From the UHGV virus genome UHGV-1729168: 13,353 bases of DNA. The stretch is one strand, 5' to 3'. Positions 1-3,000 of the stretch are shown one piece after another. Each line of letters begins with the position of its first letter. The stretch's first letter is position 1. Source of the stretch: a virus. Made by a program: the position numbers.

Positions 1-3000
1 CCACTACCTGCGAAACAAGCAGACCAAAGAGTTCTTAGCCGAGCTGGAGAAAAACCACGAATCTGTGGTTTTTACTGAGCGCGGTGTACACGGTGGAACA
101 TATGGCGGGAAGTTTGTTGCTTATGATTATGCAGCATGGCTAAACCCCGGATTTAAATATGCAGCCTATAAAGTCCTGGATGACTACTTCACCGGAGAAC
201 TCCAGCATCGCAACAGCTTAAGTGCGCAGCTCAATATGAAGTGTCATGAGTTTGATCAGAAAAAAGATATGGCGAGCTTCTGCGGGCAAGGCCTTGCGGC
301 ATGGCGCTACACGAAACCTGGTTTGATCGCTGAGATTAACTCCCTGGCTAACCAGTTGCAGATCACAATCCCCGGGCTTCCGGGATGAGTGATCGTGTCA
401 TTGAATGCGCCTCCAGAGCGGGGCGCGACTTCTCAGCGTTCATGAAAGGCGAGAAGGGCGTGATGGAAGCATTGGCCTCGGTGGATGAGTTTGGCGAGCA
501 GTTGCGCCTCAACGGCTGTGTCAATCATCACTTTGTCAGCTACATGATGCGGAACTCGATCATGCAGGCATTCATGGACATGGCAAAAGCCGAGAAGAAA
601 GAAAAGCGCCGGTGTAAGCGAGCGGAAGCAAAAGCGAAGTAGCCATTACAAAGCCCATCTACTGGTGGGCTTGATAATGGCTTATACCCTGCACGGGATA
701 ACTTAACTGATATCCTTTTTAACGGATAAAGGTATTCAAGCCTGACATATCATGCGCTGTATCGTCGCCGTATTCCCGCATTAACCATGACCGCAGCCCG
801 ACCGGGAGACTCCTCTGCGCGAGTGTGCGGGGATAATCAAAAACGATACACACCGGGGTTTACCGCGTTAACGGAGCGCGGCGTTGTCCCCTCATGGTCG
901 CTGGTCCGGTGCGATGGTGGAAGAAACCGGACGATGTGTTACCTCGCAAGCTCTGTTATGTCATGTGTCTGATTTGTGATTTAAGTCGGATAATTGTCGT
1001 TGCCATTAAACAGAGGATTGATGACCGACAGGGTGGCATTGTTAGAATAAGACTTATTCTTATCTGTGCCGGGAATGAAAATGAAAAGAAATCTTCCGTT
1101 AATTATTTTGTTGTCTTCTCTGGTTATGGGCTGTACGCAACATAAAACAGATATGCCCCGACAGTTGGTTAAGGCATTACCACAATATCCGGCCTATGCA
1201 GCGGCAAATTATATAAAGGGACGGGTTGATGTGAAGTTTGATATTGGTGCTGATGGTACTGTCACCCGAATTGAGTTTATCCGTTCAGAGCCGCACCATT
1301 TGTTTGATGAGCAGGTTGTAAAGGCGATGGCAAAATGGCGATTTGAGAAGGACAGGCCGTGTAAAGGCGTGAAGAAAACGTTTATCTTTAGTCCTTCTGC
1401 ACCCTGATTATTTCATCAGAAATTAATTATCACTCTGTTGTTATTCTGTACATCCCGGCAGGGTAAGTCTTGTTCCGTCGGATATGAAGATGAAATATTG
1501 TTGGAGGACAGTGGGTACCTGCTCCTGTAACCGAACGTTCATTTCTCGTTATTTTTCATGCTGGCCGGGCGCAGATGCGTTGCATCTGTTGCCAGCCTTC
1601 TCCTGCAGGCTTCAATAACCCACGCTGAAAAGTTACCGGACCCTTTATGCTCAAGGGCGATGTTGATCTGTTCAATTATGTGATTGGGGAAACGGATATT
1701 GCGGGTTGTGGTTCTGCGGGTCCGGTTTTTCGATGACATATTTATTTCCTTTACTGATTGTCATATGACGGGGATTTTACATGGCTGAGCTTCGTACACT
1801 CCAGAGCAGAATCAAAACACTGAATACCCGACGGGTGAATATTCTGAAGGGGGAACAGCGTCGTGTCAGTGGCAGTGCACGTGTTTCCCTCAAGCGTCAT
1901 ATCTGGCTCAGGGACGCCGGGCAGTGCTGTATCTGTGGTCGTGTGGTTGACCTCTGTGACAGTGAACTTGATCACCGAATTGCACTTCAGTTCGGTGGTG
2001 GTAATGAGGAGACGAATCTCTGGACGCTCTGTACCGAATGCCATCGACAAAAGTCTGCTCGTGAAGCGGCGGGTGGTATGCCGGACCCGACGCTGCCGGA
2101 GGTGTCCGGAGGTAGTGGCAGAGCGGACGACATCATCGGACTGTAACCCGACCCGGGGGGGGGGATCATCCGGCGTAAAAAACGATCGCTTTGGACACCG
2201 CGCCCCCTCTCACGCAGAGAAAAAATTCCCGTTTCAGGGCAGTTAACATGTTAACTGGCTGCCCGGGCATTTTTGCGGTTTTTATCTTTATTATTCAGTT
2301 TGTTGTGCGGAAAAAATGTTAACAGGCTTTTTCAGCAAATGTTAACCAGGCAGCAGTTAACATTTGCGGCATGAGACGCCGGGAAAAATGGGCTGAACCA
2401 TACCCGGCTGAGTGCGTTCTGGACCCGGGAGGAGGCTGTGCTGACAACGCAAAAACGAAAATTTGCGCTGGCGCTCATGTCCGGGAAAAACAAAACAGCG
2501 TCAGCCATTGCCGCCGGTTATTCGGCGAAGACCGCCAGGGTTAAAGGCTCGCAGCTGGCAAAAGATCCGGAGGTGCTTGCGTTTATAGCCCGTAAACAAT
2601 GCGAGACGGTGGAGGTGGATGAGGTTCCTGTTTACCGGCAGAAAAAATCAGAGCAGGAGGATAAACCCCGTCGCCGTGAGGCGGCTGCAATACCACAGCC
2701 GGACGAAAACAATCCGGAGATGCCACCGTCCGCGGTGATGTCTCCTGGTATTGAATATATGGAGGATGGTCTTCCCGATCCGGTGAAAGCCATGGGGCGG
2801 ATCCTGGTGGAAAACCTCTGCATTGATCCGAAACTGGCACTGGATGCGGCCTGGCGTCTGGCGCAGTTCACACACCATAAAAAAGGCGATGCCGGTAAAA
2901 AATCGGCAAAAGGTGATGCCGCGAAAAAAGCGGCTAACCGTTTTGCGGTACCACCACCACCACGACTGGTGGTGAATAACGATAATGAGGGCAACGGATG

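Follow-up and report, generated by a model that had tools for sequence, protein, structure and literature searches.

A predicted outer-membrane lipoprotein with a TonB C-terminal domain is encoded by a moron of Escherichia coli lambdoid prophages and may compete with TonB

The gene described here is located in a 13,353-nucleotide stretch of viral DNA (UHGV virus genome UHGV-1729168), hereafter named the window, which is part of an Escherichia coli lambdoid prophage with HK97-type head genes. Nucleotides 1081–1407 of the plus strand encode a protein of 108 amino acids, a predicted lipoprotein with a TonB C-terminal domain (the TonB_C lipoprotein), as indicated by the open reading frame (ORF) call, the profile matches and the RefSeq annotation, WP_000828068 ('TonB family protein') being annotated at the equivalent coordinates. 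Three in-frame start codons (GTG 1066, ATG 1075 and ATG 1081) share the stop codon at 1405–1407. An initial annotation had placed the ORF at 1075–1407; this ORF is real, but ATG 1081 is a likelier start than ATG 1075, which lies two codons upstream and would give 110 amino acids, because a Shine-Dalgarno-like GGGAA (1069–1073, plus strand) is found 7 nucleotides (nt) before ATG 1081 and because the equivalent start is used by both RefSeq and the annotators of phage 21. In phage 21, AGGA is annotated at the position equivalent to GGGAA.

The N-terminus of the protein (MKRNLPLIILLSSLVMGC, followed by Thr) contains two basic residues, a hydrophobic core and the lipobox L-V-M-G-C (1120–1134, plus strand). 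The signal peptide comprises residues 1–17 (MKRNLPLIILLSSLVMG; 1081–1131, plus strand), for which the AlphaFold model gave a predicted local distance difference test (pLDDT) value below 50. Cys18 (1132–1134) would carry the lipid and become residue 1 of the mature protein, and the presence of Thr instead of Asp at position +2 predicts sorting to the outer membrane. The sequence thus has the signal of a bacterial lipoprotein, with a basic n-region, a hydrophobic core, a lipobox that fits [LVI][ASTVIM][GAS]C and a residue other than Asp at +2, and the signal peptide and lipobox read initially are borne out. The lipobox is conserved in nearly all full-length relatives, down to about 35% identity. 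Lipidation and outer-membrane location are thus predicted from sequence. Codon 94 (1360–1362) is polymorphic, encoding Cys or Arg in about half each of 80 viral contigs whose copies are otherwise near-identical; Cys94 would be the sole free cysteine of the mature protein, and phage 21 likewise has Cys.

Residues 26–104 (1156–1392, plus strand) correspond to residues 153–231 of E. coli TonB according to profiles, alignment, structural model and Foldseek. The protein matched the Pfam family TonB_C (PF03544) with an E-value of 1.3e-14 and 54.8 bits (cut-off, 24.6) and TIGR01352 with an E-value of 1.1e-14 and 54.5 bits (cut-off, 27.1), which confirms the domain signature proposed at the outset. 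Thirty-one of 78 residues (40%) are identical to those of E. coli TonB 153–230. In the AlphaFold model the core has pLDDT values of 80–92 and the topology α-β-β-α-β (helix 38–42, strands 47–55 and 61–70, helix 76–84 and strand 94–103). The top Foldseek matches of this model were 2gsk_B, 1u07 and 2grx_C (probability 1.0; template modelling (TM) scores 0.83–0.89), the best being the TonB chains of the complexes with BtuB (2gsk_B; TM 0.88, root-mean-square deviation 1.7 Å) and with FhuA (2grx_C; TM 0.89, 1.3 Å). Hence, structure prediction also bore out the assignment. No match was obtained in the viral structure library BFVD at E ≤ 0.001. Outside the family, it is the enterobacterial TonBs that come closest in sequence.

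As the initial annotation had stated, neither the TonB membrane anchor nor the proline-rich spacer was found in this 108-residue protein, which has a cleavable lipoprotein signal and whose domain begins 8 residues past the lipidated Cys. Full-length TonB models (the NCBIfam PRK10819 equivalogs) failed, the best scoring 74.1 bits where 315 are required and covering profile positions 157–240 only. Strand 3 (model residues 94–103) is followed only by SPSAP. Residues Y36-P37 (TonB Y163-P164) and G59 (TonB Gly186) are present and are kept in the family (Y in 17/17 members, P in 16/17 and G in 17/17). The window protein retains all seven of the TonB residues Y163, F180, G186, F202, W213, Y215 and F230, which are kept or conservatively replaced in 16–17 of the 17 family members. 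These seven residues are functionally important for the recognition of colicin and ferrichrome (transporter), and four of them are poorly conserved across TonBs overall but conserved in enterics (PMC3005593). The family also has motifs of its own that are unlike TonB, namely YPxYAxAN, SEPxHLFD and the replacement of R166 by Tyr.

The gene is carried by a cassette of 653 base pairs (bp; 932–1584), delimited by alignment to an O157:H7 Stx2c prophage (L020) and by its guanine-plus-cytosine (GC) content. Nucleotides 1–931 of the window are 94.7% identical to L020 6001–6931 and nucleotides 1585–2500 are 92.4% identical to L020 7178–8093, whereas 932–1584 does not align and 246 unrelated bp are present there instead. 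The GC content of the cassette is 0.429 and that of the window 0.551; as low a value occurs in only 0.7% of equal-sized stretches, so that the AT-rich island described initially is indeed there.

A promoter-like site (ATGACC, 16 nt, TAGAAT, with an upstream TG that makes an extended -10 element) was located by consensus scan at 1021–1048 on the plus strand. The initial annotation had given the gene a putative promoter of its own. The scan alone is no better than chance (3 sites versus 2.3 expected), but the site exists, and phage 21 has its -10 block (ATTGTyAGAATAAGAC) unchanged although the surrounding region is just 71% identical. A perfect 17-bp palindrome (AGAATAAGaCTTATTCT, 1044–1060) overlaps both the -10 element and the probable start of transcription. 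Since its right arm comes from 13 nt inserted relative to phage 21, it was rejected as a conserved operator; it could be an operator specific to the allele of the window. Regulation by Fur was a weak lead and was dropped: the best match in the promoter (13/19, 1046–1064) ties with four other sites of the window, its right half is missing in phage 21, and the sister allele of strain LF82 is not induced where tonB rises. On the 3' side no structured RNA was detected (fold z-score 0.38; no match in Rfam). The scan for terminators found none on either side of the gene and the gene lies on the strand of the late operon, and therefore late read-through into it is also likely.

Expression was assessed in published RNA-seq data of LF82, which refer to the sister allele (72% identical, the allele of phage 21) and not to the copy of the window. 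In that work (PMC9928086) LF82_160, a 'TonB fragment' of prophage Perceval, is listed as a moron expressed 8-fold over the prophage background in LB. Its log2 values were 5.0–6.6 across all conditions, whereas those of the adjacent endolysin, Rz and terminase genes were 2.3–4.3, and in LB it reached 5.58/5.99 versus 5.61/5.63 for the chromosomal tonB gene. In macrophages LF82_160 showed no significant change, whereas bor rose by about 7 log2 units (PMC9928086). The presence or absence of the whole cassette, the conserved extended -10 and the transcription of LF82_160 in the lysogen suggest that the TonB_C gene is an autonomously transcribed prophage moron. The moron profile seen initially thus holds: an AT-rich cassette gained or lost as a unit, with a conserved promoter-like site and a sister allele transcribed while the flanking late genes are silent.

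Upstream of the gene, the window contains the 3' part of a KilA-N/ORF11CD3 gene (65–388) and an ORF of 85 amino acids and unknown function (385–642). Downstream, a DUF3950/YnfO gene on the minus strand (1539–1739) is followed by the genes for an HNH endonuclease (1781–2146), the small terminase (2438–3001), the large terminase (2998–4659) and a protease-capsid fusion (4723–6660), with the portal, head-tail and tail genes 3' of the latter. Because the holin, lysozyme and Rz genes lie directly 5' of the KilA-N gene in collinear prophages, the slot of the TonB_C lipoprotein gene is post-lysis and pre-packaging (HNH/terminase). This does not agree with the location after regulatory genes given at first, the upstream neighbours being the KilA-N/ORF11CD3 gene and the 85-residue ORF, behind the lysis genes. 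Lambda and phage 21 carry bor in the matching post-lysis slot.

Of 5426 complete E. coli genomes, 415 contained the allele of the window and 1225, including UTI89, the phage-21 allele (72% protein identity). About 30% of these genomes thus have one or the other, and every copy is annotated as 'TonB family protein'. Carriers of 99–100% identical proteins include JLK-2012, Lys8385Vzw and four Stx1a-converting phages; the 72% allele is carried by phage 21, ev017, Perceval and three ECOR phages, and a 40% relative is found in a Klebsiella phage. When the two E. coli alleles are compared, the ratio of non-synonymous to synonymous substitution rates (dN/dS) is 0.12 and the synonymous sites are nearly saturated. 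Within the window allele all 80 of the 80 copies on viral contigs are intact, and their 26 polymorphic sites comprise 19 synonymous and 7 non-synonymous ones. The low dN/dS, the synonymous excess and the intact copies show that the TonB_C lipoprotein gene is under purifying selection and is a maintained gene, not a decaying tonB fragment. That it is a dead, functionless piece of tonB picked up by a phage, as the old labels 'TonB fragment' and 'partial tonB-like' and the coverage of only the last third of TonB might suggest, is effectively refuted by these selection data, by transcription of the LF82 allele, by the acquired and conserved lipoprotein signal peptide that TonB lacks and by the occurrence in about 30% of complete genomes.

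Two side observations concern the carriers. All seven phage records with the phage-21 allele also carry sitABCD, a TonB-independent iron/manganese importer (L017 12968–16417 in phage 21), whereas 20 other sit-carrying records lack the TonB_C gene and the carriers of the window allele lack sit. A functional link was rejected, since co-carriage tracks phage lineage and is therefore not independent evidence; compensation by sit of a reduced TonB-dependent iron uptake is a testable idea. In addition, a 418-bp contig of Modestobacter excelsi (L012) encodes the first 67 residues at 70% identity and almost certainly represents contaminating E. coli DNA in that assembly.

An exhaustive profile search, in which multi-domain TonB_C proteins were kept apart from the short relatives, retrieved full-length relatives of about 110 amino acids with 33–46% identity. 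Five diverged phage lineages hold the gene in the post-lysis, pre-terminase slot, phage 21 and the Klebsiella phage among them; the order on one phage contig is DUF2514, TonB_C lipoprotein gene, HNH and terminase, and in a Sodalis prophage an endolysin gene lies about 0.7 kb upstream. Other members are chromosomal. One locus beside lacZ-lacI is syntenic across Raoultella and Klebsiella species, another in Serratia lies between a ycgN-like gene and dsbB-nhaB-fadR, and two further non-phage neighbourhoods were found on metagenome contigs. In a rough tree built by neighbour joining, the phage members are intermingled with the chromosomal ones. This indicates that transfers of the gene between phages and chromosomes have occurred on more than one occasion and, therefore, that 'phage-borne', the term applied at first, is only part of the picture: the gene is carried by phages, but relatives also occupy stable chromosomal loci.

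In the Raoultella/Klebsiella chromosomes a gene for a DUF1440 membrane protein comes next after that of the TonB_C lipoprotein (L005 6738–7301; L004 1277–1903). The Klebsiella phage that encodes a TonB_C lipoprotein also has a DUF1440 gene (64–82% nucleotide identity), with the lysis cassette in between. This pairing suggests joint capture or a functional link.

One important question is what a free TonB C-terminal domain would do at the outer membrane. We propose, with a probability of about 0.4, that the TonB_C lipoprotein competes with TonB for TonB boxes. A tether of about 8–15 residues would hold the domain just beneath the TonB-dependent transporters. As it has no connection to ExbB/ExbD, the protein could not transmit energy and, if it acts on the Ton system at all, would act as a competitor of TonB. 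Its exposed third β-strand would pair with the TonB boxes shown to the periplasm by transporters occupied by ligand, colicin or phage, and also with the TonB boxes of group B colicins themselves. As a result TonB-dependent import would be damped and the lysogen would be partly protected against TonB-dependent phages, colicins and microcins. We infer TonB-box binding and, with it, each of these phenotypes.

Several published results are consistent with such competition. In TonB itself, the TonB box binds strand 3 by β-augmentation (PMC11658791; PMC9249621), and the N-terminal end of the domain, around residue 160, contacts the TonB box (PMC9249621); therefore anchoring of the N-terminal end at the outer membrane is geometrically compatible with binding. 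That periplasmic TonB fragments inhibit TonB-dependent import, which the initial annotation had put forward as known, is supported by the part of PMC9841981 that cites Howard et al. 2001, where an overproduced periplasmic TonB domain inhibits iron import mediated by the transporters.

Regarding the target of any exclusion, the J tip of the carrier phage JLK-2012 is 53% identical to that of lambda and 50% identical to that of 434, which suggests a porin-type receptor, the identity being too low to name it. Exclusion of the carrier's own kind is disfavoured by the lambda/434-type J tips of the carriers, and any exclusion would therefore hit other TonB-requiring phages or bacteriocins and not the carrier.

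A number of points weigh against this proposal. Residues R158, Q160, Q162 and R166 of TonB are not kept (R166 is Tyr in 14 of 17 family members), and the R158/Q160/Q162 region of TonB cross-links to TonB boxes. Transporters greatly outnumber TonB, and therefore a low-abundance competitor might do little; expression is modest, the mRNA of the sister allele merely equalling that of tonB. Inhibition in the laboratory required overproduction (PMC9841981). There is also an iron cost to blocking TonB. The stable chromosomal orthologues in Klebsiella/Raoultella and Serratia suggest a housekeeping role, which need not be anti-phage, and no association with transporter genes was found in the chromosomal neighbourhoods examined. 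No PADLOC-DB defence model matched at E ≤ 0.01, and no functional study of any member of the family was found in the searchable literature.

A broader form of the proposal appears doubtful to us, though it deserves mention. In this form, about three of every ten E. coli strains, UTI89, LF82 and O157 lineages among them, would possess a natural mimic of the receptor-binding domain of TonB tethered to the outer membrane. Acting in trans on the shared TonB step, the mimic would set how sensitive the strain is to group B colicins, microcins, TonB-dependent phages and siderophore-conjugated antibiotics. Its iron cost would in some lineages perhaps be offset by the phage-borne SitABCD, and the Klebsiella/Serratia copies would be a domesticated form.

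Among the alternatives to competition for TonB boxes, the one that survives best, unlikely as we judge it, is an envelope or virulence lipoprotein whose function is unrelated to TonB inhibition and which, like Bor/Iss, strengthens the outer membrane by binding peptidoglycan or another part of the envelope, or promotes survival in the host. Binding of peptidoglycan has been reported for the C-terminal domain of TonB. The gene adjoins bor/iss and other outer-membrane morons (an ompC/nmpC-like porin gene and lom), the LF82 allele is expressed constitutively in the lysogen, macrophages included, and the stable chromosomal orthologues lie in neighbourhoods related neither to phages nor to iron. However, the protein has kept the residues specific to recognition by enteric TonBs, and the induction of about 7 log2 units that bor undergoes in macrophages does not occur.

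A second alternative, which we regard as quite improbable, is that the TonB fold has been retargeted to another β-strand or protein, either a periplasmic or outer-membrane protein of the host or part of an invading phage or toxin. FusB, a TonB homologue that binds ferredoxin, sets the precedent, and structures of the FusB C-terminal domain are among the fold matches (7zc8 and 9hi3), one of them in a ferredoxin complex. The family motifs named above, with Tyr at R166, differ from TonB, and the region equivalent to Q160 is variable. Against this, a candidate ligand is lacking, no gene neighbour is conserved across the chromosomal and phage contexts, and it is the enterobacterial TonBs that are the nearest relatives outside the family.

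It is likewise quite improbable that the lipoprotein titrates TonB itself, pairing with the C-terminal domain of the host TonB and either holding this scarce protein at the outer membrane or poisoning its cycle. The idea rests on the dimers that TonB forms during its cycle via aromatic residues of that domain, and an mRNA level close to that of tonB would suit one-to-one titration better than the saturation of abundant transporters. Nevertheless, TonB dimers in vivo needed the functional TonB membrane anchor and ExbB/D (PMC3005593), to which the lipoprotein has no equivalent. The phenotype, moreover, would be largely identical to that of a TonB-box competitor.

Finally, a role as a lysis accessory, a spanin-like outer-membrane lipoprotein, has very little left in its favour. 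It comes from the PHROG label 'Rz-like spanin', since the protein matches phrog_1267 over its full length (E 7.7e-43), and the gene lies just 3' of the lysis cassette, on the late-gene strand and with no terminator in between. Spanin identity was rejected: phage 21 and other carriers have separate genes for the inner-membrane and outer-membrane spanins (Rz/Rz1), collinear prophages keep their lysis genes yet dispense with the TonB_C gene, and in the LF82 lysogen the gene is transcribed while holin, endolysin and Rz are silent. In addition, the fold is that of TonB and no lysis genes lie near the chromosomal orthologues. On this evidence the label of phrog_1267 is wrong; it was probably derived from gene position.

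Other features of the window were also recorded. The gap between the HNH and small terminase genes contains a perfect 18-bp palindrome (CAGTTAACATGTTAACTG, 2240–2257), a possible site for packaging or for recognition by terminase. At 15 nt past the stop codon of the capsid gene lies a GC-rich inverted repeat (ACGGGAGGCGtgCGCCTCCCGT, 6675–6696), which may fold into a hairpin and so attenuate or stabilise the late mRNA. The portal gene consists of two overlapping ORFs (6872–8236 and 8233–9132), the first covering positions 1–451 of the 859-position portal profile; it is a single gene of 2586 nt in the O157 comparator, whereas JLK-2012 is annotated with a split like that of the window. The split could be a genuine arrangement of two genes, or a frameshift in a prophage that is defective. 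Another moron-like, AT-rich cassette (12131–12544, plus strand), missing from the corresponding position in L020, starts close to where the GC content of the window is lowest (about 0.42), between the gene for tail chaperone T (11786–12067) and the start of the tape-measure gene (12610). Its product, of 137 amino acids, has a signal peptide and lipobox (MKKFMLLIFSVSFFLTGC, followed by Ala) and a Gly-rich hydrophobic C-terminus, with a PEGA-domain match below threshold and a match to phrog_6823 (function unknown). A clean hairpin with a T-run, at about 12566–12593, forms a terminator 3' of this gene. We take its slot to be that of the exclusion moron of HK97 (gene 15).

The TonB_C gene itself is already known: it has been annotated since the first O157 genome as a 'partial tonB-like membrane protein' and was flagged as a moron in 2023 (PMC9928086). 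What was not found in the searchable literature is the proposed function as a TonB competitor, which is plausible. TonB-dependent transporters are the entry route of many coliphages, group B colicins, microcins, siderophores, vitamin B12 and siderophore-conjugated antibiotics. If the proposal is true, the gene would be a general modifier of host range in phage therapy, of bacteriocin competition in the gut and of iron acquisition in infection, and it would possibly modify susceptibility to Trojan-horse antibiotics as well. It would also provide a new reagent for the study of how TonB meets its transporters. If the mechanism is wrong, there is still an expressed, selected and unexplained protein, predicted to be in the outer membrane, in a large share of pathogenic E. 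coli.

The homologues on record share 72–100% identity and a common slot. They are CPT_21_73 of phage 21 ('TonB C-terminal domain protein'), LF82_160 of Perceval, WP_000828068 and WP_000830178 of RefSeq ('TonB family protein') and the 'partial tonB-like membrane protein' of prophage CP-933N in EDL933; their names are descriptive, and function is assigned in no record or paper found. Among the closest known counterparts is the C-terminal domain of E. coli TonB (about residues 150–239; PDB 1U07, 2GSK with BtuB and 2GRX with FhuA), which has in common with the phage protein 40% identity over 78 residues, the α-β-β-α-β fold, the YP motif and the seven key residues. TonB differs in having an N-terminal anchor, coupling to ExbB/ExbD and a proline-rich spacer, whereas the phage protein has a predicted lipid anchor; the last seven residues of TonB are replaced by SPSAP, and R158/Q160/Q162/R166 are not kept.

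Engineered periplasmic TonB fragments (Howard, Herrmann, Stratilo and Braun 2001, cited in PMC9841981) resemble the phage protein in that the domain is uncoupled from the inner-membrane motor, and when overproduced they inhibit iron import through FhuA and FecA. These fragments are soluble, overexpressed laboratory constructs, whereas the phage gene is natural, its product is predicted to be lipid-anchored and its sister allele is expressed at about the mRNA level of tonB. If competition for TonB boxes is confirmed, the TonB_C lipoprotein would be the first natural counterpart of dominant-negative TonB fragments, which so far are laboratory tools only. Bor/Iss of lambda and phage 21 have in common with it the post-Rz slot, the small outer-membrane lipoprotein product and expression in the lysogen, and bor/iss is adjacent to the TonB_C gene in phage 21, UTI89 and LF82. 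Bor/Iss differ in their unrelated fold, in the location of bor on the opposite strand and in the strong induction of bor by macrophages, which the TonB_C gene does not show.

Llp of T5 and Cor of phi80/N15 are small phage lipoproteins of the inner leaflet of the outer membrane that act periplasmically on a TonB-dependent transporter (10.64898/2026.03.26.714494; PMC11436027). Kinship with them was not detected in profile searches, in which Pfam gave only TonB_C and TonB_2 and PHROGs only phrog_1267 and phrog_34172, no direct pairwise comparison having been made. Llp and Cor each hit one receptor used by their own phage, whereas the phages that carry the TonB_C gene have tail tips of the lambda/434 type and the TonB_C lipoprotein would act on the step common to all TonB-dependent transporters. 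If the proposal holds, this protein would be a variant on the phage outer-membrane lipoproteins that disable TonB-dependent receptors, built from the TonB domain of the host and aimed at the step that these receptors share.

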